Notes: a model not told the origin generated them from the sequence alone. Shown: positions 40,486 to 53,003, numbered from the stretch's first letter. The stretch is DNA of 64,000 nucleotides from Acidobacteriota bacterium (GCA_020851325.1 JADZCY010000212.1:8619-72618); one strand, 5' to 3'. Numbers and translations: made by a program.

Positions 40486-41055
40486 ATGGATGTGAGCGAT
40501 GTGAAGGGCCTGCAGGCGGAAGTCCGCAAGCGGATGAGCGGGCATATCGACTACGTGCGCAAGGAAATGGCGCAGGTGCGAACGGGACGTGCGACGACGG
40601 GACTGCTCGACGGCATTCACGTCGAGGCCTACGGATCACGCATGCCGCTCAATCAGGTGGCCGGCCTCTCGATCCCCGAACCGTCGATGATCGTCGCGCA
40701 GCCGTTCGACGGCTCGCTGATGGGCGCCATCGAACGCGCCATCCGCGCCTCGGACCTCGGCCTCAATCCGGCCAACGACGGCAAGGTCATCCGCATCCCG
40801 ATCCCGGCGCTGAACGACGAACGGCGCAAGGAACTCTCGCGTCACGTCCACAAGATGACCGAAGAAGCGCGCAACCAGGTCCGCACCGTGCGCCGCGATG
40901 CCAACGACAAGCTGAAGAAGATGCTCAAGGAGCACGAGATTTCCGAAGACGACGAGAAGCGCGCCCTCGCGGAAGTGCAGAAGGCCACCGACGAGCACAT
41001 CAAGAGCATCGACGAACTGCAGCAGAAGAAGGATGCTGAGCTGTTGAATAGATAG
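40486..41055 (+). CDS. frr: ribosome recycling factor
   Basis: ...MAQVRTGRATTGLLDGIHVEAYGSRMPLNQVAGLSIPEP...IRIPIPALNDERRKEL. Confidence 0.95.
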   Translation: MDVSDVKGLQAEVRKRMSGHIDYVRKEMAQVRTGRATTGLLDGIHVEAYGSRMPLNQVAGLSIPEPSMIVAQPFDGSLMGAIERAIRASDLGLNPANDGKVIRIPIPALNDERRKELSRHVHKMTEEARNQVRTVRRDANDKLKKMLKEHEISEDDEKRALAEVQKATDEHIKSIDELQQKKDAELLNR

Positions 41056-41264
41056 CAATGAAGGTCTTAGGTCCTAGGACCTAGGTCTTAGGCCGAATGT
41101 GCGGCCCTCATGTGCGATGCATCTGCGCATCTGCGGCAACGGAGGGCTGGGGGGCTGGGGGGCTGGGGGGCTGGGGGCAGATTCTGAAGCATCTGCGACC
41201 TGTCTTCGTTCTGTGCTGTCTGTGTCATCTGTGGCCTGTCTGTGCTTTCTGTGTAATCTGTGGC
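41056..41264. repeat. composite intergenic repeat: 14-bp palindrome, (G5-6 CT)x4 array, and a CTGTG/CATCTG short-period block
   Basis: AGGTCCTAGGACCT (41069-41082). GGGCTGGGGGGCTGGGGGGCTGGGGGGCTGGGGG (41144-41177). CATCTGTGGCCTGTCTGTGCTTTCTGTGTAATCTGTGGC is the reverse complement of the block at 58080-58135. Confidence 0.75.
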
Positions 41265-42482
41265 GTGGCCTATTTCACCCATCTCGAGTGTGCGTCCATC
41301 TGCGGCGCGGGACCGTTCGATCCGCGTGAGCGGCACTTTCTGTGTCCGTCCTGCGGCCTGCCGCTGCTGGCGCGCTACGATCTGACGGCGGCGCGCGCGT
41401 GGTCGCGTGATTCACTGGTCGGCCGCGAGCCGACGATGTGGCGGTATCGCGAGATGATGCCGCTGCTGCCGGGCGATGTCCCGGTGTCGCTGGGTGAAGG
41501 CTTCACGCCGCTGCGGCACGCGGAGCGGCTGGGGCAGTCACTCGGGCTGTCGCGGCTCTTCATCAAGGACGAGTCGCTCAATCCCACCACGTCGTTCAAG
41601 GCGCGCGGACAATCGGCGGCCATCACGCGCGCGAAGGCGCTGGGCGCGACGACGATTGCGCTGCCGACCGCGGGTAACGCCGGCAACGCGGCGGCGGCGT
41701 TTGCCGCGGCGGCGGGTCTTGCCTGTCAGGTGTTCATGCCGCGCGACGCCAAGCAGCCCTTCATCGACGAATGCCGCTTGTATGGCGCCACCGTGACGCT
41801 CGTCGACGGACTGATCACGGACGCCGGCCGCGCTGCCGCGGAGGCCGGCCGCGGCCTTGGCTGGTACGACGTCTCGACGCTGAAGGAACCGTACCGCGTC
41901 GAAGGCAAGAAGACGATGGGGTATGAACTCGCCGAGCAGTTGGAGTGGACGCTGCCCGACTGGATCATCTATCCCACAGGCGGCGGTACCGGACTCGTCG
42001 GCATGTGGAAGGCGTTTGCCGAGATGGAAGCCATTGGCTGGATCACGCCGGGACGGCGGCCGAAGATGGTGTCGGTGCAGGCCAGCGGCTGCGCGCCGAT
42101 CGTGCGCGCCTTCGAGACCGGCGCCGAGAAGGCGGCGCCGTGGGAGAACGCGCACACCAGCGCCGACGGCCTGCGCGTGCCGAAGGCGATCGGCGACTTC
42201 CTGATACTGCAGGCGGTGCGCGAGAGCGGCGGCACGGCGCTCGCCATCGACGACAGCGAGATGGTGCGCGACATGCTCGAGATCGGACGTCTCGAAGGCA
42301 TCAGCGCCGCGCCCGAAGGCGGCGCGTCACTCTCCGCCATCCGCGCGCTCGTCAACGACGGCCGCATCGGCGCCAACGACACCGTGGTGCTCTTCAACAC
42401 CGGCGGGGCACTCAAGTACCTCGACGTTCTAAAAGACCCGTCAATGACAGAAACATCGGCAATCGAGAGATCGGGAGATTGA
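41265..42482 (+). CDS. thrC: threonine synthase with N-terminal zinc-ribbon
   Basis: CASICGAGPFDPRERHFLCPSCGLPL (CxxC-x13-CxxC) followed by a PLP fold (NPTTSFKARG). Track ORF 41097.. begins inside repeat DNA, so the GTG at 41265 is the first start outside it. Exact start uncertain. Confidence 0.85.
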   Translation: MAYFTHLECASICGAGPFDPRERHFLCPSCGLPLLARYDLTAARAWSRDSLVGREPTMWRYREMMPLLPGDVPVSLGEGFTPLRHAERLGQSLGLSRLFIKDESLNPTTSFKARGQSAAITRAKALGATTIALPTAGNAGNAAAAFAAAAGLACQVFMPRDAKQPFIDECRLYGATVTLVDGLITDAGRAAAEAGRGLGWYDVSTLKEPYRVEGKKTMGYELAEQLEWTLPDWIIYPTGGGTGLVGMWKAFAEMEAIGWITPGRRPKMVSVQASGCAPIVRAFETGAEKAAPWENAHTSADGLRVPKAIGDFLILQAVRESGGTALAIDDSEMVRDMLEIGRLEGISAAPEGGASLSAIRALVNDGRIGANDTVVLFNTGGALKYLDVLKDPSMTETSAIERSGD

Positions 42483-42596
42483 GCGATTGTCTGCAATTGG
42501 CAATCGGCAATCTCTGATTCGCATTTCGAATCGCCGATTGCCCGATCGCCGATTGGCAACAATCGCCCAATCCCCCGATCCGTCAATCCGTGAATG
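42483..42596. repeat. CGATTG/CAATCG-family short-period repeat
   Basis: GAGCGATTGTCTGCAATTGGCAATCGGCAATCTCTGATTCGCATTTCGAATCGCCGATTGCCCGATCGCCGATTGGCAACAATCGCC.... Related blocks occur at 54993-55116 and 59650-59740. Confidence 0.7.
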
Positions 42597-43682
42597 CTAC
42601 GGCTCACCGAAGGAAATGCCGATCGCCCTGGCCGTGGCGAGCAGGTCGTAGTCGAGCGGCACGGTGCGGGTACGGCCGACCACATCCGCCAGCGGCACCG
42701 GCACCATGTCCGGCGGATGGTTCGCCACCATCTTGCCGAAGACGCCGCGGCGCAGTAGTTCCACCGCCTTGCCGCCCAGGCGCGTTGCGAGCACGCGATC
42801 GAACGGCGTCGGCGCGCCGCCGCGCTGCAGGTGGCCGAGCACGACGTAGCGCGCGTCCTTCCCCGTCATCTCTTCGAGCGCCGTCGCCACCGTGACGCCG
42901 ACGCCGCCGAGGCGCTCCACGTAGCCGGCGCGCGCCTGCTCGAGGACGACGCGTTCGCCGCCAATCGGTTTCGCGCCTTCCGCCACCACGACGATGCTGA
43001 ACTTCGCGCCAAGCGCGTCACGCCGACGCACGTGTTCGGCCACGCACTCGATGCTGTACGGAATCTCCGGCATCAGGATCACGTCAGCGCCGCCGCCGAC
43101 GCCCGCGTGCAGCGCGATCCAGCCGGCGTAGCGGCCCATCACCTCGACGACCATGATCCGCTTGTGCGCCTCCGCCGTGGAGTGCAGGCGATCGATCGCA
43201 TCGGCGGCAAATGACACCGCCGTATCGAACCCGAAGCACGTCGTCGTCCCGACGATGTCGTTGTCGATCGTCTTCGGCACGCCGACGAGCGGAATGCCCT
43301 TGAGGAAGAACTGGTGCGCGATGCCCAGCGTGCCGTCGCCGCCGATGGCGACGAGTGCGTCGAGTCCCATCTTGTGGAACGTCTCGACGACACGGTCCGA
43401 GTAATCCACCTTGCCGTTGGCGGTATCCGCCGGATACTCGAACGGGTTGCCGTGATTGGTGGTCCCGAGGATGGTGCCGCCCAGGCGCAGGATGCCGGTG
43501 ACGTCCTTCGGCGTCAGCGGCCGCGTCCGCGAGGGGTCGAGCAGTCCATCGAAGCTGTCTTCGAGGCCGATGACTTCGATGCCGGCGTTACAGGCCGCCT
43601 TGACGACGGCGCGGATGACTGCGTTGAGGCCGGGCGCGTCGCCGCCGCCGGTCAGGACACCAATCTTTCTCACTGGGGACAT
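42597..43682 (-). CDS. pfkA: 6-phosphofructokinase (PfkA family; ATP vs PPi specificity not decided)
   Basis: MSPVRKIGVLTGGGDAPGLNAVIRAVV...IGGDGTLGIA...PKTIDNDI...MGRYAGWIAL. ATG at 43682 confirmed. Confidence 0.9.
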   Translation of the reverse strand: MSPVRKIGVLTGGGDAPGLNAVIRAVVKAACNAGIEVIGLEDSFDGLLDPSRTRPLTPKDVTGILRLGGTILGTTNHGNPFEYPADTANGKVDYSDRVVETFHKMGLDALVAIGGDGTLGIAHQFFLKGIPLVGVPKTIDNDIVGTTTCFGFDTAVSFAADAIDRLHSTAEAHKRIMVVEVMGRYAGWIALHAGVGGGADVILMPEIPYSIECVAEHVRRRDALGAKFSIVVVAEGAKPIGGERVVLEQARAGYVERLGGVGVTVATALEEMTGKDARYVVLGHLQRGGAPTPFDRVLATRLGGKAVELLRRGVFGKMVANHPPDMVPVPLADVVGRTRTVPLDYDLLATARAIGISFGEP

Positions 43683-43750
43683 CGGGGTTGCCACTATAGC
43701 ATTCCGGCCGGAATGGCCGAGGTTGGAGGCGAAAGTGTGACGCAACACCG

Positions 43751-43759
43751 TGCTATACT
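43751..43759 (+). promoter_or_regulatory. candidate extended -10 (TGCTATACT) upstream of FN3 paralog 1
   Basis: TGnTATACT lies about 80 nt upstream of the ATG at 43840. No good -35. Pattern match only. Confidence 0.25.
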
Positions 43760-43839
43760 CCGACTCGGTTTTGCGCCCGCGGGGCCTCCCAGCCCCCTCG
43801 GATTCCAAACCCCAAACCTCTCCCCCAACGCTTGAAAGG

Positions 43840-45207
43840 ATGTTTGCGATGTTGGTGTGGGCAAAAACGGTGCGGGCGTGGACGGCATCCGGGTTGATGG
43901 CGCTGCTGCTCGGCCTCGGCGCGGTGGTTCTCCTGGCGGCGCCCGTGGCTCCCGCGCTCAACGCGCCGGCGGTATCGGGCCAGCGCGTCACGTTGTCGTG
44001 GAACGCGGTGCCGGGCGCCCTGGGCTATCGCCTCTCGGTGGGCGTCAACCCGAGCGCACCGGCATACGCGCAGAACGTCGGCCCGGCTACTTCCTACACA
44101 TTCGATTCGCCGTTCACCGGCACCGGCTGGGTGGCCGTGCAGGCGTACGACGCCTCGGGCCTCAGCCCGTACTCGAACGTCGTGCAACTGGTAATCGGCG
44201 GCGCGGCCGGCACACCCGCTGCCCCGCAGGATCTGCAGTACGGCATCAGCGGCCGGAACGTCGTGCTGTCGTGGCGCGCCGGCATGGGCGGCTCGGCGCC
44301 GCTCGGCGTGCTGCTCGAAGCCGGCACCAGTCCCGGGGCCGCCAACCTCGGCAGCATTCCGCTGCCCATCAGCACGCAGACCACGGTGCCGAACGTCCCG
44401 AACGGCACCTACTACGCGCGTGTCTACGCGGTGAACGCGTCGGGCCGCAGCGCACCGTCGAACGAAGTGCGCATCGACATGCCCGGTGGTGGCGGTCCCT
44501 GCGTGCCGCCGCCGGCGTCGTCACTCGCGGCGTCGGTGAATGGCCAGACCGTGGGCTTTGCCTGGTCGCCGGTGGTGGGTGTGGCCGGCTACAACCTCGA
44601 AGTGTCGCTGAGCCCGACATCGCCCGCCGTGCTGTCGCAGACGTTCGGCCCAGGCACGACAAGCTTTGCCTATCCCAATGCGCCGGCCGGCACCTACTAC
44701 GCCCGCGTTGTCACCGGCGCCGCCTGCGGCGCGCAGACGGGATCGAACGTGGTGCCGCTGACGGTGACGGGGCCGCCGCCGGGAACCGGTCCGCGCACGC
44801 CCAACCCGCCGCCGGGACAGCGCCTGCCGCTGCCGAACATGTCGAGCGTCGTCGAGGCGATCGCGCGTGCCTATCCGAACGAGCTGCGGAACTCGTGCCG
44901 CGAGCACGGCGGCAACAACGCCTGGATGTTCCGGCTGGTGCAGGAACTGCGTCGTCACGACACGCGGTGGGGGTTGAACTGGAAACGCGGCAACCGCGGC
45001 GACATGTCGCAGGATGCCATCGACTACAACTTCGGTTCAACGGCGGATGAAGACACGACGAATGTCTACATCATCGACGTCATCGGCGGGCACTGCGGAG
45101 GCAACCCCGGGCCGACGTGGATCGACCAGACGCAGGCCACGGCTGACAAGGGTGAGATTGGTCGCTGGACGCTGCAGCCGTACATCGCGGCGGGCGGACA
45201 ACCCTAG
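43840..45207 (+). CDS. secreted protein: 3 FN3-like modules + unplaced conserved C-terminal domain (paralog 1)
   Basis: Signal/TM N-terminus. Three modules of about 95 aa (..LSW..V.GA.GY.L......GTYYARV.A.N.SG.S..SN.V). Linker GPRTPNPPPGQRLPLP, then C-domain SCREHGGNNAWMF...RWGLNWKRGNRGDMSQD...IGGHCGGNP. AAGGA SD before the ATG. Confidence 0.75.
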   Translation: MFAMLVWAKTVRAWTASGLMALLLGLGAVVLLAAPVAPALNAPAVSGQRVTLSWNAVPGALGYRLSVGVNPSAPAYAQNVGPATSYTFDSPFTGTGWVAVQAYDASGLSPYSNVVQLVIGGAAGTPAAPQDLQYGISGRNVVLSWRAGMGGSAPLGVLLEAGTSPGAANLGSIPLPISTQTTVPNVPNGTYYARVYAVNASGRSAPSNEVRIDMPGGGGPCVPPPASSLAASVNGQTVGFAWSPVVGVAGYNLEVSLSPTSPAVLSQTFGPGTTSFAYPNAPAGTYYARVVTGAACGAQTGSNVVPLTVTGPPPGTGPRTPNPPPGQRLPLPNMSSVVEAIARAYPNELRNSCREHGGNNAWMFRLVQELRRHDTRWGLNWKRGNRGDMSQDAIDYNFGSTADEDTTNVYIIDVIGGHCGGNPGPTWIDQTQATADKGEIGRWTLQPYIAAGGQP

Positions 45208-45213
45208 GAGTCT

Positions 45214-45277
45214 GGTGGGCTGGGGGGCTGGAGGACTGGGGGCTCGAGGACTTGGGGGCCGGAGGCTGGAGAGCTGG
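45214..45277 (+). repeat. G-rich 8-bp-period repeat (same family as 20558)
   Basis: GGTGGGCTGGGGGGCTGGAGGACTGGGGGCTCGAGGACTTGGGGGCCGGAGGCTGGAGAGCTGG. Confidence 0.75.
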
Positions 45278-45411
45278 CCGCGCCTGAAGGCCGGAGAGCG
45301 ACAGGCCGAGAAGTCGGAAGCCACCCGGGGGATCGAGACCACTCCCCACTTTGTTCTGAACGTGTGTTGGTGCAACCGGGCGCCCGTGGCCCTGACCGAA
45401 AGGATGGCTGA

Positions 45412-46770
45412 ATGAAGAGACTGCAGTTCCCCCTGACTCACGTTGCCGCGGCCGTGCTGGCGGCGGTCGTGGGTGCGTCGGTGCTGACGCACGCGCAGGT
45501 GACCCCGCCGACGCTGACCGCGTCGGCCGTGGGTGCGACCGTAAACTTCTCGTGGACCCCGGTGGCCGACGCCACCGAATATGTGCTGCAGGCCGGCGTT
45601 GCGCCCGGCAACTACATCCTGACGGTCCCGGTGGGACTGACGACGGCAACGTCAGCGCAGGCACCCGCCGTCGGCACCTACTATGCGCGCGTCGGCGCCC
45701 GGACGCCGAGCGGCGATGTGTGGTCCGCCGGCATTCCCATCACGGTGACCGCGATGGTCGCGCCTCCGACGGCGCCCACGGCACTCACCACGTATCTGAA
45801 CGGACGGTCCGCGCTGATTACCTGGACTCCGGGCGTCGGCGGGGGCGCTCCGAGCGGCTATATCCTGCACGCCGGCACCACCCCGGGCGGCACGGAGCAC
45901 GGCGTGTTTCCGCTGGGCGCGACGCCGCAGTTGGCCGTGCCGAACCTCGGCGCCGGCGACTACCACCTGCGTCTCTTCGCGGTGAACGCCGGCGGTGTGA
46001 GCCCGGCGTCGAACGACACGCTGCTCAGCATGCCCCAGGGCGGCGGCTGCTCGGTGCCGCCGGCGCGCGACTTCACGTTCTTCTCATTCGGCCGCTTCGC
46101 GCAGTTCACGTGGCTGCCGGTGCCCGGCGCGTCGGGATACCGCATTGACGTGGCGACGTCGCCCGGCGGCGCGCCCGCAGCGTCGCAGACGTTCGCGGCG
46201 AACGCCGGGAACTGGAGCATTACCGGCGCTCCGCTCGGCACCTTCCACGCCAAACTGACTACCGCGGTGTCGTGCGGTCAGCAGGCGACGAGCGCGGAGA
46301 AGCCGATCGTCCTCGACGGTGCACCGCCACCGGGACCGCGCGCGCCCAATCCGGCACCCGGGCAGCGGCTGCCGTTCCCGTCCTGGGGCGAGGCCGTGGT
46401 CGAACAGCTCGCCGCCGAACGGCGGGACCTGCTCTTCCAGTCGTGCACCGAGCACGGCGGCAACAACCGCTTCATGTTCGAACTCGTCCGCCGTTTGCGC
46501 CAGCGTGACAACCGCTTCGGCCTGAATTGGAAGCGCGGCAACTACGGCGACCTGTCGCAGGACATCGTCAACTACAACTTCGGCAGCGAGCCGGACGAGG
46601 GCACCGAGAACGTCTACATCGTCGACATCATCGGCGGCCACTGCGGCTCGAATCCGTCGGCGGCGTGGATCAATCAAACCGACGCGACTCGCGCGGCGGG
46701 TACTAAAGGCGTGTGGACGCTGCTCCCGTACATGAACGCGGGGTTCCCGATCGTTTCCGATCAGCAGTAA
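45412..46770 (+). CDS. secreted protein: 3 FN3-like modules + same C-terminal domain (paralog 2)
   Basis: Signal peptide (..VLTHA-QV). Linker GPRAPNPAPGQRLPFP. C-domain SCTEHGGNNRFMF...RFGLNWKRGNYGDLSQD...IGGHCGSNP. Confidence 0.75.
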   Translation: MKRLQFPLTHVAAAVLAAVVGASVLTHAQVTPPTLTASAVGATVNFSWTPVADATEYVLQAGVAPGNYILTVPVGLTTATSAQAPAVGTYYARVGARTPSGDVWSAGIPITVTAMVAPPTAPTALTTYLNGRSALITWTPGVGGGAPSGYILHAGTTPGGTEHGVFPLGATPQLAVPNLGAGDYHLRLFAVNAGGVSPASNDTLLSMPQGGGCSVPPARDFTFFSFGRFAQFTWLPVPGASGYRIDVATSPGGAPAASQTFAANAGNWSITGAPLGTFHAKLTTAVSCGQQATSAEKPIVLDGAPPPGPRAPNPAPGQRLPFPSWGEAVVEQLAAERRDLLFQSCTEHGGNNRFMFELVRRLRQRDNRFGLNWKRGNYGDLSQDIVNYNFGSEPDEGTENVYIVDIIGGHCGSNPSAAWINQTDATRAAGTKGVWTLLPYMNAGFPIVSDQQ

Positions 46771-46876
46771 CCCGCCGCTGAACGTGCGAGATTTTATGGG
46801 GCCACCTCAACCGGGTGGCCCCATAATTGTCGGGGTTGCGAGGTCGCCGTGCCGGCGCCTCCTGGAGCCCGATCGC

Positions 46877-48211
46877 ATGAAGAAGACTTTGCTCGCGGCG
46901 CTGCTTGGCGCTGCCGCCCTCCTCGTCAGTCCGTCCTTCGCCCTCGCGCAGTCCGCGCCTGTCCTCACCGTCGATGTGTCCGGCAACAACGTCGGCGCGT
47001 CATGGACCGCTGTTGCCGGCTCCACCGGCTACCGCGTCGACGTCGGCACCTACTCGGCCGGCACCAACGTCATCTCCGCCACCATCAACGGACTCTCCGC
47101 CGGCGGCGCGCTCGGCGTCGGCACCTACTTCATTCGCGTCTACCCGGTCGCCGGCTCGACGCTCGGTCCGGTGTCCAACGAGGTGCAGTTCAACGTTGGC
47201 ACGCCGCGGCCGGGCGCGCCCATCGCGCCCGCCGCCACAATGGACGGCTCGACGCTGGTGTTCACGTGGGCGCCGCCGACCACGGGTGGCGCGCCGACGA
47301 CCTACGTCCTGCAGGCCGGGACGCAGTTCGACTGGGCCAACCTGGCGACGCTGAACGTCGGCAATGTCGCGACCTACTCGGTCCCGAACGTCGCCGGACT
47401 GTTGCCCGCGGGCACCTACTTCGCGCGCGTGATGGCCGCCAACGGCACCGGCGCCAGCGATCCGTCGGAGGAGATTGTGTTCACGATTGGCAATCTCCCC
47501 GGCGTGCCGACGCCGAATGCGCCGACCGTGAGCGGGAACAACGTCACGCTGTCGTGGAATCCGCCCGCCGGCGGCCTGCCTGTCACGAACTACCGCATCG
47601 AAGGTGCCTACGGCGACTACCGCAACCTCGGCACCGCCGCAACACTCGACGGCAGCGCGACGTCGTACTCGGCCAATCTGCCCAACGGCTCGTACTACTG
47701 GCGCGTGCGCGCCTTCAACGGCACCACGCCCGGCGCCGTGTTCGGCACCGCGTCGTTTGCCGTCGGGCCAACCGATCCGCCGCCGGCTGGTCCGCGCACG
47801 CCCAACCCGGCCACCGGCCGCCGGCTGCCCAAGCCTTCGTACGGCGAAAGCGTCGCCCGTGCCATGGCCACGGCGTATCCCTTCGATCTCGCCAACTCGT
47901 GCCACGAAACCGGCGGCACGAACCACTGGATGTTCAAGGTGATTCGTGAACTGCGCCACATCGACACGCGCTGGATTCTCAACTGGAAGCGCGGCAACAC
48001 CGGCGACCTCTCGCAGGACATCGCCAACTACAACTACGGATCGCTGCCGGACGAAGGCACGATTGACGTCTATCTGTGGGACATCATTGGCGGACACTGC
48101 GGCGGGCGTCCGACCTGGAACTGGTCGGACGTCACCGACGCCACGGCGCGCGGCAACACCATCGGCCGCGGCACGCTGCGCCCCTACATCGCCGCCGGCT
48201 ACACGCCGTAG
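46877..48211 (+). CDS. secreted protein: 3 FN3-like modules + same C-terminal domain (paralog 3)
   Basis: MKKTLLAALLGAAALLVSPSFALA-QS. Linker GPRTPNPATGRRLPKP. C-domain SCHETGGTNHWMF...RWILNWKRGNTGDLSQD...IGGHCGGRP. Confidence 0.75.
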   Translation: MKKTLLAALLGAAALLVSPSFALAQSAPVLTVDVSGNNVGASWTAVAGSTGYRVDVGTYSAGTNVISATINGLSAGGALGVGTYFIRVYPVAGSTLGPVSNEVQFNVGTPRPGAPIAPAATMDGSTLVFTWAPPTTGGAPTTYVLQAGTQFDWANLATLNVGNVATYSVPNVAGLLPAGTYFARVMAANGTGASDPSEEIVFTIGNLPGVPTPNAPTVSGNNVTLSWNPPAGGLPVTNYRIEGAYGDYRNLGTAATLDGSATSYSANLPNGSYYWRVRAFNGTTPGAVFGTASFAVGPTDPPPAGPRTPNPATGRRLPKPSYGESVARAMATAYPFDLANSCHETGGTNHWMFKVIRELRHIDTRWILNWKRGNTGDLSQDIANYNYGSLPDEGTIDVYLWDIIGGHCGGRPTWNWSDVTDATARGNTIGRGTLRPYIAAGYTP

Positions 48212-48231
48212 TTCAGATTGGGCTCAAGATT

Positions 48232-48370
48232 GGGGTCAGGTCACGATTCGGGAGTCCGGCGACGACTGACGACTCACGAATCGTGACCTGACCCCGGCTC
48301 GTCGTGACCCCGTGACCCCGGCTCGTCGTGACCCCGGCTCGTCGTGACTCACGAATCGTGACCTGACCCC
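48232..48370 (+). repeat. perfect 19-bp inverted repeat with a duplicated right arm, plus a 16-mer tandem repeat
   Basis: GGGGTCAGGTCACGATTCG (48232-48250) is complementary to CGAATCGTGACCTGACCCC at both 48277-48295 and 48352-48370. GGCTCGTCGTGACCCC x3 lies between the two right arms. Confidence 0.85.
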
Positions 48371-48403
48371 CAGGCTATAGACCCCCGGCTATACGGCGCG
48401 GTT

Positions 48404-48412
48404 TGGTACAAT
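48404..48412 (+). promoter_or_regulatory. candidate extended -10 (TGGTACAAT) upstream of the matrixin-like gene
   Basis: TGnTACAAT lies 40 nt upstream of the ATG at 48452. No -35 match. Pattern match only. Confidence 0.25.
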
Positions 48413-48451
48413 GACCCATCCCGCGACCGTCCCCGCCGCGGCCTGAACTCC

Positions 48452-50440
48452 ATGCCAATTCGCCTGCTCGTCGCGCTGCTCTTCACCCTGCTCGTCCAGA
48501 CGCCGCAGGCTCAGCAACCGCCGTCCGCCGTGGCCGACCTTGCCGACGCCTCTGCCGTGGTCGTGACGGGTGCCGTCGAGGCGATGGCGGCTGGCGAGGA
48601 TCAGGGCGCCATTTACACCTACGTCACCGTCCGCGTGGACGAGGTGCTGAAGGGCGCCGTCCCGGCGCGCACGGTGGTGGTGAAACAACTCGGCGGCACG
48701 CTGCCGCAGCTGGGCCTCTACATTGCCGATCAGGCGCGCTTTGCCGCCGGCGAGTCGGTACTGCTCTTCCTCAACAGCCGCCCGCGCGATGGTTCGCTCT
48801 ACACGGTCGGCCTCGGCCGCGGCAAGTGGACGGTGCTGCCCGACATCCGCGGCGGCGGGCTGGCCGCGATCCAAGGCTCGCTCGCAACGGGGCTTGACGA
48901 TACGACACGCGCCGCGATCGCCGCGTCGCGCCCGCACGCCGCGAACTTCGTCGCCATCCCGGCCGACGCGCCGACGCCGGACAGCCCCGGCTACACGTTC
49001 ATCCCCGGCAGCGAAGGCGGTCCCGCGCGCTGGCATCAGGCCGACGATGGCGTGAGCGTGCCGGTGGACTTCCAGACGATTCCCGGCGGCTTGCCCGGCG
49101 ACGCCAGCGCTGCACTCAATCGCGCCATCGGCGCCTGGAACGGCGTCGGCTCGCAACTGCAGCTCGCCCGCGCGCAGACCGGCCCGCACACCTGCCCATC
49201 CACCGGATTCAGCGGCAACGGACGCATCGGCCTTTACTGGAACGACCCCTGCGGCGAAATTCCCGACGGCGACTCCGCCACCTTCGGCATGGGCGGCGGC
49301 TTCTTCACGCCCGGCTTCCAGAAGACGATCAACGGCGTCACGTTCAACGCGTTCGTGCAGGGCCTGGCGATCCTGAACAACAGCGGACCGCACCTCGCCA
49401 CGGCGGCGTGTCTGGAAGACGCGTTGACGCACGTGCTCGGTCACGCGGTGGGCCTCGGGCACTCCGGCGACGGCAACGCCGTGATGTATACGACGCTGCG
49501 CTCCAGTTGCACTGGCGGATCCACCGGGCTCGGCACCGACGATGTGAACGGGCTGGGTGCGATTTATCCGGACATCCCGAGTGGCGGCCTGCCACCGCAG
49601 GCGCCAACGGCCATCACCAATACCGTGTCGCTCGACTCGGTAACGCTGTCGTGGACGCCGGCCACCAGCGGCGGGCCGGCGCAGAGCTACATCCTCGAGG
49701 CCGGGACGTCGGAGCAGCAGCCGAACAACATCGCGGTGCTGCCGCTGCCGAACGCCAACACATCGACGGTGGTCGGCGCGGTGCCGCCCGGCGTCTACTA
49801 CGTCCGCGTTCGCGCTCGCAACGTGCTTGGCACGAGCGCGCTGTCGCCGGCCACGGTGGTGACCGTCGGCCCGTGTCAGGCGCCCGCCGCACCGACAGGA
49901 CTGGCTTACACGAACGCCGACGGCTTTGTCGGCATCACGTGGAACCCGCCGGCCTCCGGCGTCACGCAGGGCTACCTGCTGTCGGCTGGGATGTCGCCCG
50001 GTGCATCCGACGCGCTGGTGCTGCCGCTCGGTCCGACGCCGGCCTTCGCGGGCACGGCGCCCCCCGGTGATTACTACGTGCGTGTCGCGGCGCGAAACTC
50101 CTGCGCCACGGGTCCCGCGTCGTCGCCCGATCTCGTCGTCCAGGTACGCGCCTGCACCGCGCCGCCGCTCGCGCCGGCGAATCTCTCGTTCACGCGCGCC
50201 GGCAACACCGTGACGCTCAACTGGACCGGGCCCACATCCGGTAACCTGCCGTCCCGGTATCAGATTCACGCCGGCAGCGGGCCTGGTGCCTCCAACATCC
50301 TCGTCTACGAAACGACCAACCCGGCCACGTCGTTCCAGGCCTTTGCACCCGCCGGCACCTATTACGTCCGCATCGTCAGCCGCAACAACTGCGGCTCGAG
50401 CAGTACCGCGTCCAACGAAGTGCAGGTGGTGGTGCCATGA
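48452..50440 (+). CDS. secreted matrixin (M10)-like protein with Glu-to-Val in the zinc motif, plus 3 FN3-like modules
   Basis: Signal peptide. Motif THVLGHAVGLGHSGDGNAVMY fits HExxHxxGxxH-S-x5-A-x-M-Y except that the catalytic E is V (codon GTG at 49433-49435). Three C-terminal modules have the same flavour as in the paralogs. Confidence 0.75.
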   Translation: MPIRLLVALLFTLLVQTPQAQQPPSAVADLADASAVVVTGAVEAMAAGEDQGAIYTYVTVRVDEVLKGAVPARTVVVKQLGGTLPQLGLYIADQARFAAGESVLLFLNSRPRDGSLYTVGLGRGKWTVLPDIRGGGLAAIQGSLATGLDDTTRAAIAASRPHAANFVAIPADAPTPDSPGYTFIPGSEGGPARWHQADDGVSVPVDFQTIPGGLPGDASAALNRAIGAWNGVGSQLQLARAQTGPHTCPSTGFSGNGRIGLYWNDPCGEIPDGDSATFGMGGGFFTPGFQKTINGVTFNAFVQGLAILNNSGPHLATAACLEDALTHVLGHAVGLGHSGDGNAVMYTTLRSSCTGGSTGLGTDDVNGLGAIYPDIPSGGLPPQAPTAITNTVSLDSVTLSWTPATSGGPAQSYILEAGTSEQQPNNIAVLPLPNANTSTVVGAVPPGVYYVRVRARNVLGTSALSPATVVTVGPCQAPAAPTGLAYTNADGFVGITWNPPASGVTQGYLLSAGMSPGASDALVLPLGPTPAFAGTAPPGDYYVRVAARNSCATGPASSPDLVVQVRACTAPPLAPANLSFTRAGNTVTLNWTGPTSGNLPSRYQIHAGSGPGASNILVYETTNPATSFQAFAPAGTYYVRIVSRNNCGSSSTASNEVQVVVP

Positions 50441-51741
50441 GCCGAGCGCGCGTGCGGTGGTCGTTGTCGCTGGTCGCGCTGGTGATGCCGCTGGCGGCGG
50501 CCATGCCCGCCGTGCTGGCGGGTGATCAATCGGCGCCTGCTCCCACTGCTGTCGCCGCTGACGCGCCGACCTACGTGCGCGACATCGCGCCGCTCCTGAA
50601 CGAACACTGCGTCGAATGTCATCGCCCCGGCCAGATGGCGCCGATGTCGTTTCTCACCTACGAGGCCACGCGTCCGTGGGCGCGCGCCATCCAGCGTCAG
50701 GTGGTCGGCCGGACGATGCCGCCATGGGGTGCGGATCCGGCAGTGGGCCACTTCGCGAACGATCCGAGTCTGTCCGCCGACGCCATTTCGACGATCACGC
50801 GCTGGGTGGACGCCGGAGCGCCGCGCGGTGAGGGCGCGCCGCCCGCGCCGCCGGCCGCACAGTCCGACGAATGGCGCATCGGCACGCCGGATCTGATCCT
50901 GTCGATGGACGAGTCCTTCCCCATTCCCGCGACGGGGATCATCGAATACCAGTACTTCAAGGTGCCGACGCACTTGAAGGAAGACCGCTGGGTGACCGCC
51001 GTGGAGATTCGTCCCGGCGAGCCGCGGGCCGTGCATCACCTCCGCATCTTCGCGCAAGGGCCTGAACGCGACACGCGACCCGTCCCGACCGGCCGCGAGA
51101 TGTATTGCATCGACGAAGTGTGTGGCAATCTCGAACCGCCGCTGATTGGCTGGGGACCGAACCTCGCCTCCGTCGCGGTCGGCACGCGGCCCGAAGTGTA
51201 CGAGCTCGGCTCCGGCAAGCTGCTGAAGGCCGGCTCGGTGCTGACGCTGCACACGCACTACACCTCGTTTGGCGAAGCCAGCACGGACCGCACGCGCGTC
51301 GGTCTCCGCTTCGCGAAGACGCCGCCGAAGGTGCAGTTGAAAACGGTGTCGATGGCGCAGGAACAGTTCGCGATTCCGCCGGGCGATGCCAATCATGTCG
51401 TGAACGCCTCGCTCGAGTTCCGCGAACCGGTGCAGCTGCACAGTCTCGGCCCGCACGCGCACCTGCGTGGCCGCAGCTGGCGCTTCTGGCTGCAGACGCC
51501 GGACGGCACGCGCACCGAACTCCTCTCCGTCCCGCGCTTCGACTTCGACTGGCAGTTGCACTACGTGTTCAAGGATCCGATTGCGGTTCCGGCCGGCTCG
51601 AAGCTCGAAGGCACGGCGACGTTCGACAACTCGCCGGGGAACGTCAACAACCCCGACGCCACCGCCACCGTGCGCTGGGGCCCGCTGACGGTGGACGAGA
51701 TGATGTTCGCGTCGGTCGTCTACAGCGCCGACAAGAAATAG
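50437..51741 (+). CDS. heme-c domain fused to PHM/DBH-like copper type II monooxygenase fold
   Basis: Signal peptide. CVECH (50608-50622) followed by MPPW. His/Met pattern is HH(200-201), HTH(272-274), HAH(340-342), EMM(421-423), with spacing close to the PHM CuH/CuM ligands. ATGA overlap with the upstream gene. Confidence 0.7.
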   Translation: MSRARVRWSLSLVALVMPLAAAMPAVLAGDQSAPAPTAVAADAPTYVRDIAPLLNEHCVECHRPGQMAPMSFLTYEATRPWARAIQRQVVGRTMPPWGADPAVGHFANDPSLSADAISTITRWVDAGAPRGEGAPPAPPAAQSDEWRIGTPDLILSMDESFPIPATGIIEYQYFKVPTHLKEDRWVTAVEIRPGEPRAVHHLRIFAQGPERDTRPVPTGREMYCIDEVCGNLEPPLIGWGPNLASVAVGTRPEVYELGSGKLLKAGSVLTLHTHYTSFGEASTDRTRVGLRFAKTPPKVQLKTVSMAQEQFAIPPGDANHVVNASLEFREPVQLHSLGPHAHLRGRSWRFWLQTPDGTRTELLSVPRFDFDWQLHYVFKDPIAVPAGSKLEGTATFDNSPGNVNNPDATATVRWGPLTVDEMMFASVVYSADKK

Positions 51742-51744
51742 CGG

Positions 51745-51903
51745 GACACAGGAAACCGCGAAGACACGAAGGGGCACGACCCTTCGACGTCGCTCAGGGC
51801 AAGCGAACGCGAAGGACGCAAAGGTTGCAGAGGGGCCAGACCAGTCTTTGTGCCCTTCGCGCCCTTCGCGGTCAGCAGAGGATCTTCGTGCCATCGTGGT
51901 TTC
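51745..51903 (+). repeat. CACGAAGG-family element with conserved core, copy A (upstream of the SDR gene)
   Basis: Core ACCCTTCGACGTCGCTCAGGGCAAGCG (51779-51805), GCCCTTCGCGCCCTTCGCGG, and CTTCGTGCCATCGTGGTTTC. Confidence 0.75.
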
Positions 51904-51921
51904 ATTGCCGGAGGCCACACC

Positions 51922-52833
51922 ATGCCGACTGTTGTTCGCGCCCACCGTTGGTTCTGGCTCAGCACTGTCGTCGTTGTCGCCGTCGCCGCGGGTTTGCGGT
52001 GGACGTCGGCGCAGGCACCAGCCGACAATGCCGACGTGAAGGGCAAGATCGTTTTGATTACCGGGTCCACCGATGGACTCGGGCGTGAAGTGGCACGGCG
52101 CACGGCGGCGCGTGGCGCGCATGTCATCGTCCACGGACGCAATCAGGAACGCGGCAAGGCCGTGGTGGATGAAATCACGAAGGACGGCGCCGGCACGGCG
52201 CGGTTCTATGCGGCCGACTTCGCTCTGCTGGATGACGTGCGGACGTTTGCCGCCGCCATCCGGAGGGACTACGACCGCATCGACGTGCTGGTGAACAACG
52301 CCGGCGTGCTGCTGCGCGATCGGCAGGTGAGCCGCGATGGGCACGAGCTGCAGTTCGCGGTGAACTATCTCGCCGGCTTCCTGCTCACGCGCACGCTGCT
52401 GCCGATCATCGGCGTCAACTCTCCGGCGCGCATCATCAACGTCTCGTCACTCGCGCAGTCGCCGATCGACTTCGACGACGTGATGCTCGAGCGGCCCGGC
52501 CGCGCCGCGCAGGGCTATGGACAGAGCAAGCTGGCGCAGATCCTCTTCACGATGGATCTCGCCACGGAACTCAAAGATCGCCCCATCATCGTCACCGCTC
52601 TCCATCCGGCGACGATGATGGATACGACGATGGTGCGGCAGTCGGGCATGCCGTCGCGTTCCACCGTTGATGAGGGCGCCACGGCGCTGATGCAGCAGAT
52701 TGCCGGCGCGACGGTCGAGAGCGGCCGCTTCTACAACGGCCTGAACCCCGCGCGTCCGAACGCACAGGCCGAAGACGTCACCGCCCGCGCGAAGCTGCGC
52801 GAACTGAGCGTGAAGCTGACGGGAGTGAAATAG
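51922..52833 (+). CDS. short-chain dehydrogenase/reductase with N-terminal TM/signal segment
   Basis: KGKIVLITGSTDGLGREVA (TGxxxGxG), NNAG, and YGQSKLA (YxxxK). GGAGG 7 nt upstream of the ATG at 51922. Confidence 0.85.
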   Translation: MPTVVRAHRWFWLSTVVVVAVAAGLRWTSAQAPADNADVKGKIVLITGSTDGLGREVARRTAARGAHVIVHGRNQERGKAVVDEITKDGAGTARFYAADFALLDDVRTFAAAIRRDYDRIDVLVNNAGVLLRDRQVSRDGHELQFAVNYLAGFLLTRTLLPIIGVNSPARIINVSSLAQSPIDFDDVMLERPGRAAQGYGQSKLAQILFTMDLATELKDRPIIVTALHPATMMDTTMVRQSGMPSRSTVDEGATALMQQIAGATVESGRFYNGLNPARPNAQAEDVTARAKLRELSVKLTGVK

Positions 52834-52854
52834 ACGTTTGCCGGGACGCTTAAA

Positions 52855-53003
52855 GACACCACGAAGACCCGAAGGATCACGACCCTTCGACGTCACTCAG
52901 GGCAAGCGGCCGCGAAGCACACAAAGGAGAATGCTCTCTTTGTTTTCGTGCCCTTCGCGCCCTTCGCGGACGACGAAGGCTCGCTTCGTGCCTTCGTGGT
53001 TTC
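52855..53003 (+). repeat. CACGAAGG-family element with conserved core, copy B (downstream of the SDR gene)
   Basis: Core ACCCTTCGACGTCACTCAGGGCAAGCG (52882-52908), GCCCTTCGCGCCCTTCGCGG, and CTTCGTGCCTTCGTGGTTTC. Same orientation as copy A. Confidence 0.75.

Follow-up and report, generated by a model that had tools for sequence, protein, structure and literature searches.

The analysis of a 64,000-nt stretch of DNA from a soil acidobacterium (the window) reveals three consecutive plus-strand genes with a common layout (Table 1), each encoding a signal peptide followed by three FN3-like modules and, beyond a Pro-rich segment, a C-terminal domain of about 125 aa (C-domain). ORF calls together with module and domain HMMs bear out the same-strand trio of identical architecture proposed in a first-pass annotation of this DNA, with paralog-to-paralog identity of 43-45% over the full length. 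Alternative starts exist for the first gene (43750 or 43840) and the third (46784 or 46877); for paralog 1, the orthologue that syntenic genomes retain as the first gene after pfk, the relative P0086 suggests that the start is perhaps 43849 (MLVWA...) and not 43840. The signal/anchor region of this paralog was called by eye from the sequence alone.

The stalks were delineated by an iterated HMM, which detects exactly three modules per paralog (i-E 1e-21 to 1e-39), as had been claimed earlier, and finds all nine to be mutually homologous. Compared with secreted bacterial proteins bearing fn3 (PF00041) stalks, the window stalks are likewise FN3-like but divergent, Pfam fn3 finding just one or two of the three modules in each protein, with whole-protein scores above the cut-off of 25 for paralog 1 (27.8) and paralog 3 (57.7) and below it for paralog 2 (21.7). 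The Cys pair previously described in the third module of paralogs 1 and 2 was located at C221/C296 and C213/C288, respectively, while paralog 3 has no pair beyond that of its C-domain. The depiction of the spacers as repeat-filled holds for two of the three, at 45212-45277 and 48232-48370, and no repeat was found in spacer 46771-46876. No immunity-like small ORFs were found in the 204-nt and 106-nt spacers that separate the paralogs; a polymorphic toxin/effector-immunity module was considered and rejected, these spacers being without any ORF downstream of each domain gene.

Table 1. Features of the locus in window coordinates.
Feature	Position	Strand	Details
Paralog 1 gene	43840..45207	+	455 aa
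Paralog 1 N-terminal hydrophobic signal/anchor region	43840..43962	+	Sequence inspection
Paralog 1 FN3-like module 1	43963..44217	+	aa 42-126, iterated HMM
Paralog 1 FN3-like module 2	44245..44490	+	aa 136-217, iterated HMM and Pfam fn3
Paralog 1 FN3-like module 3	44527..44784	+	aa 230-315, iterated HMM; Cys pair C221/C296 associated
Paralog 1 C-domain	44776..45204	+	Includes ordered Pro-rich N-extension; putative disulfide C353-C419
Paralog 1 C-domain core residues			R376, N380, K382, R383, S390, D392, D413
Tandem repeat	45212..45277	.	Intergenic; unit CTGGAGGACTGGGGGG (15-16 nt), 4.2 copies
Paralog 2 gene	45412..46770	+	452 aa
Paralog 2 FN3-like modules	45520-45768, 45796-46038, 46090-46326	+	Iterated HMM
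Paralog 2 C-domain	46321..46767	+	Domain HMM hit at 46321-46752; putative disulfide C345-C411
Paralog 3 gene	46877..48211	+	444 aa
Paralog 3 FN3-like modules	46976-47221, 47231-47512, 47519-47773	+	Iterated HMM; module 3 without Cys pair
Paralog 3 C-domain	47777..48208	+	Domain HMM; putative disulfide C342-C408; ETGG, not EHGG
25-nt inverted repeats and 16/24-nt tandem repeats	48232..48370	.	Intergenic, downstream of paralog 3
Metzincin-like gene	48452..50440	+	Motif HVLGHAVGLGH, catalytic Glu absent; three C-terminal FN3-like modules
Cytochrome-c (CVECH) and Cu2_monoox_C-like protein	50437..51741	+	Pfam and synteny

The C-terminal domain family

Searching the six-frame window with the domain HMM returned three matches only, one per paralog (E 1e-76, 1e-67, 1e-63), and the C-domain is 54-61% identical between paralogs whereas the stalk is 28-35% identical. 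All of the conserved blocks quoted earlier (SC.E(H/T)GG.N, R(W/F)(G/I)LNWKRGN.GD.SQD, D.IGGHCG, and the ..AG tail) were found. The C-domain is a real, constrained family, so far undescribed, with about 890 clusters at 50% identity (E <= 1e-3); a separate phage subtype (>220 clusters) is homologous to the bacterial one (hhalign 99.4%, E 1e-21). With conservation and Cys counts taken over 360 non-identical copies, a universal core of R64, N68, K70, R71, S78, D80, and D101 (domain numbering) was found to be >97% conserved in these copies and in both subtypes.

The domain is of the alpha+beta class (AF2 model, pLDDT 95.9, pTM 0.90), and two AlphaFold models were made, both with pLDDT about 95. No match was obtained against Pfam-A 2025 and NCBIfam 20 at E <= 1 or against PHROGs v4 at E <= 0.01, and nothing significant emerged from PDB sequence searches with phmmer and hmmsearch (best E 1.6, 3.5, 0.12) or from Foldseek against the PDB with the bacterial model (best E 1.7, TM <=0.36) and the phage-subtype model (best E 0.88). 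Similarity to known lysins, peptidases, and glycosidases was not detectable by sequence or fold, and precomputed Pfam domains on 81 and 120 listed relatives amounted to none except one DUF5675 fusion partner. The domain, which the first-pass annotation could not place, thus stays outside every characterised family covered by these searches. Across 95 diverse members, the Pfam partners are all Ig-like or beta-sandwich and none is catalytic, the C-domain being the terminal module on Ig-like/FN3 stalks among those members; many family members are lipoproteins or secreted proteins.

From the conserved Cys and His residues, either a disulfide-stabilised module or a Cys/His hydrolase had been envisaged. 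The former fits the joint gain and loss of C41 and C107 (both in 337, neither in 11, and a single one in 12 of the 360 copies; Fisher p 2e-13), the pair being present in exported forms and absent from phage forms without a signal peptide. A hydrolase whose nucleophile was C41 or C107, with H106 or the EHGG His serving as the base, would agree with the >90% conservation of Cys and His within the bacterial subtype, which shares with papain-/transglutaminase-like peptidases (LapG, vasohibins, CHAP, e.g., PlyPy) an alpha-then-beta order, a Cys close to where a helix begins, and a His that follows a strand; LapG (TM 0.35), VASH1/2, and PlyPy also appear among the non-significant hits towards the bottom of the Foldseek list. 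However, about 35 of 360 copies (~10%) carry E, V, I, S, Q, N, or A in place of His106, often while retaining the Cys pair; 59 of 360 (~16%) have lost all or part of the EHGG loop (four residues in 43 of the 59); and the phage subtype is devoid of the Cys pair and of Cys and His at positions 106-107. Papain-like, NlpC/P60, CHAP, and transglutaminase-like enzymes need an invariant Cys and His, neither of which is family-wide here, and the Foldseek matches to papain-like folds (LapG, VASH, and PlyPy) were non-significant, at E 3.8-8.7, probability <=0.05, and TM <=0.36. Because the Cys residues co-vary, neither His106 nor the EHGG loop is indispensable, and Cys/His are missing from the phage subtype, a disulfide staple is supported and a Cys/His hydrolase, which we regard as very improbable, is rejected.

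Phage relatives and bacterial neighbourhoods

Family members in uncultured phages occur within lysis cassettes and in tail proteins, a connection that was absent from the first-pass annotation and is the main functional clue. SleB-type (Hydrolase_2), GH108, and GH24 endolysins adjoin the phage domain genes: the domain gene overlaps the stop codon of a GH108+PG_binding_3 endolysin (L084), lies two ORFs downstream of a GH24 lysozyme (L085, L090-95), or follows a Hydrolase_2 endolysin by two or three ORFs (L082, L096, L099). In L097, a Hydrolase_2 gene precedes the domain gene by ~1.2 kb and an XhlA-like gene by two ORFs; in L083, an ORF resembling a holin, together with a GH108 endolysin, lies downstream; and several phage contigs have XhlA or Phage_holin_10 genes beside the domain gene. 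Three related phages possess non-orthologous endolysins, with the domain gene kept in each. The lysis-cassette protein (~200 aa, Cys-free, no signal peptide) consists of the C-domain, a Pro-rich linker, and a three-helix bundle. Among tail-associated forms, the C-domain is fused to a tail protein of phrog_52 (E 1e-64) in P0202, belongs to a 695-aa tail-module protein in L079/80, and forms the tip of coiled-coil fibre-like proteins in L078, P0209, and P0212; in P0237, it is fused to DUF5675, which has been proposed to be a C82-like lysin domain (bioRxiv 10.64898/2026.04.11.717860). The lysis-cassette or tail-fusion placement of phage endolysins and tail lysins is thus found for the phage members and not for the window genes. 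Since relatives sit in phage lysis gene sets and tail proteins, the C-domain probably acts on the bacterial envelope.

In Vicinamibacterales, about 40 of 77 loci show a syntenic order of pfk on the minus strand, one to four domain genes, and then a matrixin-like gene, so that homologues are not scattered but share a conserved neighbourhood. Between 1 and 4 copies occur, mostly 2, which does not support triplication as a family trait. The single island suggested earlier holds for the matrixin-like gene, and its three modules detected by the iterated HMM confirm that the FN3-like flavour of the paralogs recurs there; the membership of the PHM-like gene at 50437..51741 is doubtful, and a PHM-like partner finds no support as a trait of the family, as synteny of this gene is confined to 6 loci from close relatives. 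The matrixin-like gene resembles matrixin-type metzincins around the zinc motif (Pfam Peptidase_M10, 30.9 bits, cut-off 24) but differs at the catalytic Glu position of HExxHxxGxxH, which is V, G, or N in 33/33 orthologues, and an intact matrixin/metzincin was rejected for 48452-50440 despite the Peptidase_M10 match. This missing Glu had been overlooked previously. GNAT, GT2, and LolA genes follow the window locus, and the chromosomal locus is conserved beside housekeeping genes and not in variable regions. Lipoprotein versions of the family lie in a GT4/epimerase/LPG_synthase_TM/radical-SAM cluster; this setting and the genes after the window locus both relate to the envelope and favour an envelope-directed role.

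Function of the C-domain

Our preferred reading, with a probability of roughly 0.45, is that the C-domain constitutes an undescribed envelope-directed family acting as a wall-lytic (hydrolytic) module, with the polar cluster as its putative substrate site. We infer the envelope or murein as its target and, likewise, catalysis rather than binding alone. Each gene would yield a Sec-exported protein in which the three FN3-like modules serve as a spacer stalk for the end domain, this being stapled in exported forms by one putative disulfide (C41-C107), with an ordered Pro-rich strap ahead of it. The family would be concerned with the cell envelope of bacteria, its most probable target being the murein layer, with phages deploying the end domain twice, as a soluble lysis-cassette protein and as a C-terminal module of tail/fibre-like proteins. 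The invariant cluster R64/N68/K70/R71/S78/D80/D101 on the beta-sheet may form the substrate site, and the Vicinamibacterales array might remodel its own wall or attack foreign walls.

The lytic reading gains from a comparison with modular endolysins and tail lysins (GH108+PG_binding_3, GH24, SleB/Hydrolase_2, Tal-type), which combine a catalytic domain, a linker, and a wall-binding domain. The phage family proteins occupy the same genomic places (lysis cassette and tail C-terminus) and follow the same modular logic of domain, Pro-rich linker, and small helical bundle at small size, and the bacterial homologues are exported or lipoproteins. The C-domain nevertheless lacks sequence or fold similarity to known lysin families and has no conserved Glu, metal-binding His set, or Cys/His, and its gene occurs in addition to a canonical endolysin, not in its place. 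As the cassettes already hold such an endolysin, the domain gene is not needed as a lysin; L101 and L102, where no lysis genes lie near the domain gene, also count against the wall-lytic reading.

A non-catalytic binder of the envelope (peptidoglycan, secondary wall polymer, exopolysaccharide, or LPS) is a tentative alternative, under which the domain would serve phages as a tip that binds receptors and, encoded by a gene of its own, as a wall-targeting subunit of the lysis machinery, and would let Vicinamibacterales anchor or aim FN3-stalked surface proteins. Fibre-tip and FN3/Ig stalk-end placement is typical for receptor-binding or adhesin domains, and the C-domain, always terminal on Ig-like/FN3 stalks and at the tip of the fibre-like phage proteins (L078, P0209, P0212), conforms to it, which counts against lysis. 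So do the complete endolysin in the cassettes, the nil resemblance to known hydrolases, and the conserved Arg, Asn, Lys, Ser, Asp, and aromatics, which would equally suit a glycan- or phosphate-binding site; lipoprotein versions within a glycan/glycolipid biosynthesis cluster point the same way. Like separately encoded or terminal wall-binding modules (PG_binding_1/3, SH3b, LysM, PlyCB-type) and fibre-tip receptor-binding domains, the C-domain is terminal on stalks or fibres, occurs in lysis cassettes, and has a surface set of conserved polar and aromatic residues, yet it has no homology to them; its seven polar residues, >97% invariant from Acidobacteria to phages, are conserved much more strictly than is usual for receptor-binding tips or for a binder with diverse hosts. 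Moreover, the neighbouring GH108 endolysins have their own PG_binding_3 domain, and the phage lysis protein carries the C-domain N-terminally, ahead of linker and three-helix bundle, where a catalytic domain would usually be found. C-terminal fusions on tail/hub-type proteins are classically lytic domains, and P0202 carries such a C-terminal fusion.

A role away from the envelope, as a secreted nuclease/toxin or a structural/chaperone element of phage late proteins with coincidental neighbours, appears improbable. Late-operon position can bring unrelated genes beside lysis genes, a cluster of basic and acidic residues could bind nucleic acid, and weak, non-significant Foldseek matches to NucC and angiogenin were seen, but the gene is kept next to endolysins of three non-orthologous types and with holin-like genes on either side, no immunity-like small ORFs separate the window paralogs, and the chromosomal locus has the housekeeping setting described above.

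Within the wall-lytic reading, a bolder and rather doubtful proposal is that the C-domain founds a new wall-lytic enzyme class, with a fold absent from the PDB, a Ser/Lys/Asp/Arg active site, and a peptide-stem or amidase role. The adjacent endolysins sampled (GH108, GH24, and SleB-type) are of families that cleave glycan strands, and the C-domain could thus supply the missing peptide-stem or amidase activity. If true, this would be a new enzyme class common to phage lysis cassettes, tails, and exported proteins of Acidobacteria, Myxococcota-like, and CPR bacteria, with an active-site chemistry that would differ from the usual Glu, Cys/His, or zinc types.

The C-terminal domain as a family

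Our ORF scan and alignment, together with an HMM iterated from a single FN3-like module and an HMM of the C-terminal domain, bore out the observation in the first-pass annotation of a three-gene array in which each protein joins a stalk of three FN3-like modules to a shared C-terminal domain of ~125 residues (the C-domain). The three paralogs are 43-45% identical overall, with identity much denser over the final ~140 residues (stalk, 28-35%; C-domain, 54-61%). The iterated HMM recovers exactly three modules per paralog (i-E 1e-21 to 1e-39), of which the Pfam fn3 model detects just one or two, as well as three more, similar in flavour, in the C-terminal part of the neighbouring metzincin-like protein. 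In a six-frame translation of the entire window, the domain HMM matches three places only. The N-termini look like Sec signal peptides in sequence, e.g. MKKTLLAALLGAAALLVSPSFALA|QS, and the Cys positions are exactly as first described.

Features of the paralog region (window coordinates)
Feature	Position	Strand	Evidence or remark
Paralog 1 ORF	43750/43840-45207	+	ORF scan
Paralog 2 ORF	45412-46770	+	ORF scan
Paralog 3 ORF	46784/46877-48211	+	ORF scan
C-domain copies	44776-45204, 46321-46752, 47777-48208		Domain HMM, E 1e-76 to 1e-63
Longest pfk ORF	42597-43991	-	GTG at 43991
Spacer repeats, paralogs 1 to 2	45212-45277		G-rich tandem repeats, 15-16-nt unit
Repeats after paralog 3	48232-48370		Near-perfect 25-nt inverted repeats with 16/24-nt tandem units
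Metzincin-like gene	48452-50440		Three FN3-like modules
PHM-like gene	50437-51741		Start overlaps stop of metzincin-like gene

No match to the C-domain was found in Pfam, NCBIfam or PHROGs, and searches of PDB sequences with a single sequence and two profiles returned noise only: Ling Zhi-8 (E 1.6), an Ig-like protein whose match falls on FN3 columns (E 3.5), and Wza/SLBB (E 0.12), which shares a short DVIG.AGG motif only. The same short-motif fault applies to an SLBB identity for one phage protein (Pfam E 0.005 over 24 residues), the matching segment being a strand and a loop in its AF2 model. A word-indexed search of 5.8 billion proteins gave 81 relatives, all unnamed and none with a Pfam domain, and when 1.84 billion cluster representatives were searched exhaustively with a HMMER profile, 890 clusters passed E<=1e-3, of which 562 also passed E<=1e-10, a family size of roughly 900 clusters as counted at 50% identity. 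Neither the family nor the accession of the BFVD match described below turned up in literature searches.

The AlphaFold2 model of the C-domain is very confident (pLDDT 95.9, pTM 0.90, from a 65-sequence alignment) and runs from an ordered Pro-rich N-terminal strap through three main helices, with a short helical turn, and a four-stranded beta-meander to two short helices. The strap segment, R-x-P-x-P-x-x-G-x-x-L-P-x-P, is both conserved and modelled at pLDDT >95, and thus belongs to the bacterial-type domain rather than forming a free linker. In Foldseek searches against the PDB, the best match of this model has E 1.7 (TM <=0.36), and nothing falls below E 0.8 when the bacterial and phage models are taken together; its match in BFVD is an uncharacterised Caudovirales protein (E 5e-7, TM 0.65). 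The C-domain is therefore a real but undescribed family, sizeable and cleanly defined, with an unusually informative genomic signature. Modular proteins, exported or of phage origin, that end in an envelope-directed domain are a known kind of system; what is new is the family itself, which the first-pass annotation had left unplaced and which is absent from the curated libraries searched and has no PDB fold neighbour.

Residue statistics over 360 non-identical, near-full-length copies separate the two options first offered for the domain, a disulfide-stabilised module or a Cys/His hydrolase. Both Cys are present in 337 copies, neither in 11 and a single one in 12 (Fisher p 2e-13), and this paired gain and loss, which is the behaviour of a structural disulfide, supports the former option. 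In ~35 of the 360 copies, often with the Cys pair retained, E, V, I, S, Q, N or A stands in place of His106 (domain numbering, as throughout); the EHGG loop is wholly or partly missing in 59 (a four-residue loss in 43 of them), and its His is the majority residue in just 141. Neither His is thus essential, and the hydrolase option is rejected. Conservation above 97% is instead seen at R64, G66, N68, K70, R71, S78, D80 and D101 (core residues R376, N380, K382, R383, S390, D392 and D413 in paralog 1 numbering), with L58, R59, D62, W/F65, Y84, W115 and W131 also well conserved. Across the sequences compared, the putative C41-C107 disulfide occurs only where the protein is exported, and the exported members offer a clean natural instance of a disulfide staple.

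Bacterial architectures and chromosomal neighbourhood

Across 95 diverse representatives, partner domains called by Pfam are limited to Ig-like or beta-sandwich modules (Ig_Rha78A_N, N_BRCA1_IG, PhoD_N, TIG, fn3, DUF5719, CarboxypepD_reg, PEGA and PKD), and no catalytic partner domain was found. Many members begin with lipoprotein-type or Sec-type signals, two have a T4SS_pilin N-terminus, and some hold two or three C-domain copies within one protein. Given these passive partners and export signals, the C-domain is the terminal, functional end of exported stalked proteins.

The genome scan gave 223 matches, from which 77 loci were kept, essentially all from Vicinamibacterales or other Acidobacteriota MAGs as judged from record titles. 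By tblastn with the window proteins, gene order is conserved in ~40 of the 77 as rpsB, tsf, pyrH, frr, a PALP enzyme gene, pfk (-), one to four domain genes, the metzincin-like gene, the PHM-like gene (in 6), GNAT (-), GT2 and LolA. The placing of the matrixin-like gene in one island with the domain genes is thereby upheld; the PHM-like gene fails as a conserved partner, being syntenic in the closest relatives only, and triplication fails as a family feature, since most loci have two copies in total. The pfk-adjacent copy is always a clear paralog-1 orthologue and the downstream copies are more divergent and variable in number, which argues that the array is ancient and that three copies are the state of one lineage.

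The zinc motif of the metzincin-like protein reads H-V-L-G-H-A-V-G-L-G-H. Its His ligands are kept across 33 orthologues, the third sometimes as Asp, and in all 33 the catalytic-Glu position of HExxH is V, G or N, which points to a conserved Glu-less metzincin, a candidate pseudo-protease or zinc-binding module. Being syntenic and conserved across the order, it is a second uncharacterised partner that deserves study. The PHM-like gene encodes a CxxCH haem-binding motif (CVECH; weak Cytochrome_CBB3 match) and a weak C-terminal Cu2_monoox_C (PHM/DBH-like) match.

In a second locus type (L088, L027-L034, L037 and L069; MAGs of Vicinamibacteraceae and Luteitalea), lipoprotein versions ending in ...GRWTGRGRF stand in tandem, two or three at a time, within a GT4, epimerase, LPG_synthase_TM, methyltransferase and radical-SAM cluster. 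A myxobacterial-type member near Peptidase_S8 and Amidase_2 genes is not decisive. MAGs titled "uncultured Bifidobacteriaceae bacterium" (L002, L007, L015, L038, L041, L053, L064, L066 and L074) carry the Vicinamibacterales syntenic locus, with rpsB, tsf and pfk 83-94% identical to those of the window, and their taxonomic labels look wrong.

Within the window, the longest pfk ORF would run into the 5' end of the paralog 1 gene. A shorter, 367-aa form starts near 43700, and Pfam places the PFK match from about its residue 12 onward, so that pfk and paralog 1 are most likely divergently transcribed from a ~140-nt intergenic region. The description of the spacers as repeat-filled is right for two of the three, which hold short tandem and inverted repeats; no repeat was found in the remaining one (46771-46876). 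Repeat-like G/C-rich peptide strings (GWGAGGLGGWG, LEGWRTGGLEG) occur in spurious ORFs elsewhere, e.g. near 41100 and 55300, which suggests that the intergenic repeats may be a dispersed family. An Rfam search of 41000-53000 found no family, and a promoter/terminator scan gave nothing useful.

Phage tails and lysis cassettes

Ten IMG/VR loci encode C-domain relatives, and tblastn against 50,697 GenBank phage records gave no match, so the phage members are known from uncultured contigs only. Several place the domain at the end of a virion protein: in P0202, a phage tail protein (phrog_52, E 1e-64), the C-domain forms the C-terminus, a 695-aa protein ending in it lies amid a run of tail and fibre genes (L079/L080), and a coiled-coil, fibre-like protein carries it at the end (L078). 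In L087 the domain follows in frame a phrog_3108 domain with an SLT-like motif, judged by eye and Pfam negative. P0237 fuses the phage-type domain to DUF5675, proposed on structural grounds as a C82-like lysin domain (2026 preprint, bioRxiv 10.64898/2026.04.11.717860).

A phage subtype of ~190-230 aa comprises >220 clusters, many on 20-50 kb contigs, and hhalign shows it to be a homologue of the bacterial type (99.4%, E 1e-21). It has neither signal peptide nor Cys pair, carries His at 41 (the first Cys position) and 59 (the Arg59 position) and small residues at 106-107, and retains the R-G-N-K-R-G...S-D...D core. In its AF2 model (pLDDT 94.6) a Pro-rich linker joins the domain to a three-helix bundle, and the model has no match among PDB folds by Foldseek.

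The gene of this subtype recurs in lysis cassettes. In L084 the gene start and the stop codon of a GH108+PG_binding_3 endolysin overlap; the gene lies two ORFs downstream of a Phage_lysozyme (GH24) gene in L085, L090-L094 and L095, and two or three ORFs downstream of a Hydrolase_2 (SleB-type) gene in L082, L096 and L099. In L097 it is preceded by an XhlA-like gene two ORFs away and by a Hydrolase_2 gene ~1.2 kb away; in L083 the domain gene is followed by a C92-like ORF, a TM/coiled-coil ORF and a GH108 endolysin; and on several contigs it is flanked by XhlA-like or Phage_holin_10-like genes. The related phages L082, L084 and L085 have three non-orthologous endolysins, yet all keep the domain gene. 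Two sampled contexts, L101 and L102, showed no lysis genes nearby.

A small ORF directly 5' of the domain gene, often overlapping it, is seen in L082 (9786-10016), L085 (1759-1977) and, as 61-94-aa genes, in L090-L099, and may encode a partner protein. The L082 and L085 copies have the motif W.PE.DR.PGF.F..QPEQT..GSVWTQIVSF in common, and both lack a TM segment and a lipobox; Pfam gave no match for the L082 copy and no precomputed hit on the called genes of L090-L099. Two cassettes have a DUF1353 ORF 3' of the domain gene (L084, 10573-10890; L096, 3921-4298), the L084 copy carrying a CC..HD motif that may resemble the phospholipase A2 active-site signature.

Proposed function

The best-supported statement is that the C-domain acts on the cell envelope, since it occurs in phage tails and lysis cassettes and on exported stalks and lipoproteins in bacteria, with the disulfide in exported forms only. 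Within that role, the reading we favour is a wall-lytic (hydrolytic) module. Seven polar residues hardly vary between very distant lineages; the phage protein has the domain first, then a linker and small helical bundle, an order in which the leading domain is usually catalytic; and modules added C-terminally to phage tail or hub proteins are, classically, lytic. GH108, GH24 and SleB-type enzymes, the types of neighbouring endolysin sampled, belong to families known as glycan-strand cleavers, which would leave room for a complementary peptide-stem activity of the domain.

A non-catalytic envelope-binding module is the main rival; the positions at fibre tips and stalk ends, and a residue set of Arg, Lys, Asn, Asp and aromatics, fit it equally well. 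Other readings were rejected: a polymorphic toxin, as there are no immunity ORFs; a spanin role for the phage protein, which has neither TM segment nor lipobox; and an S74 intramolecular chaperone, GH25, LAS/M15, GDSL or PD-(D/E)xK, all suggested by motif resemblance and with no profile or fold support.

Should the C-domain act on the wall, as an enzyme or as a binder, the lysin and envelope toolbox would gain an uncurated module that lacks a PDB fold match. The family bears on the annotation of lysis cassettes in uncultured phages, on enzybiotic discovery and on the envelope biology of Vicinamibacterales, an abundant order of soil Acidobacteriota that is hard to culture.
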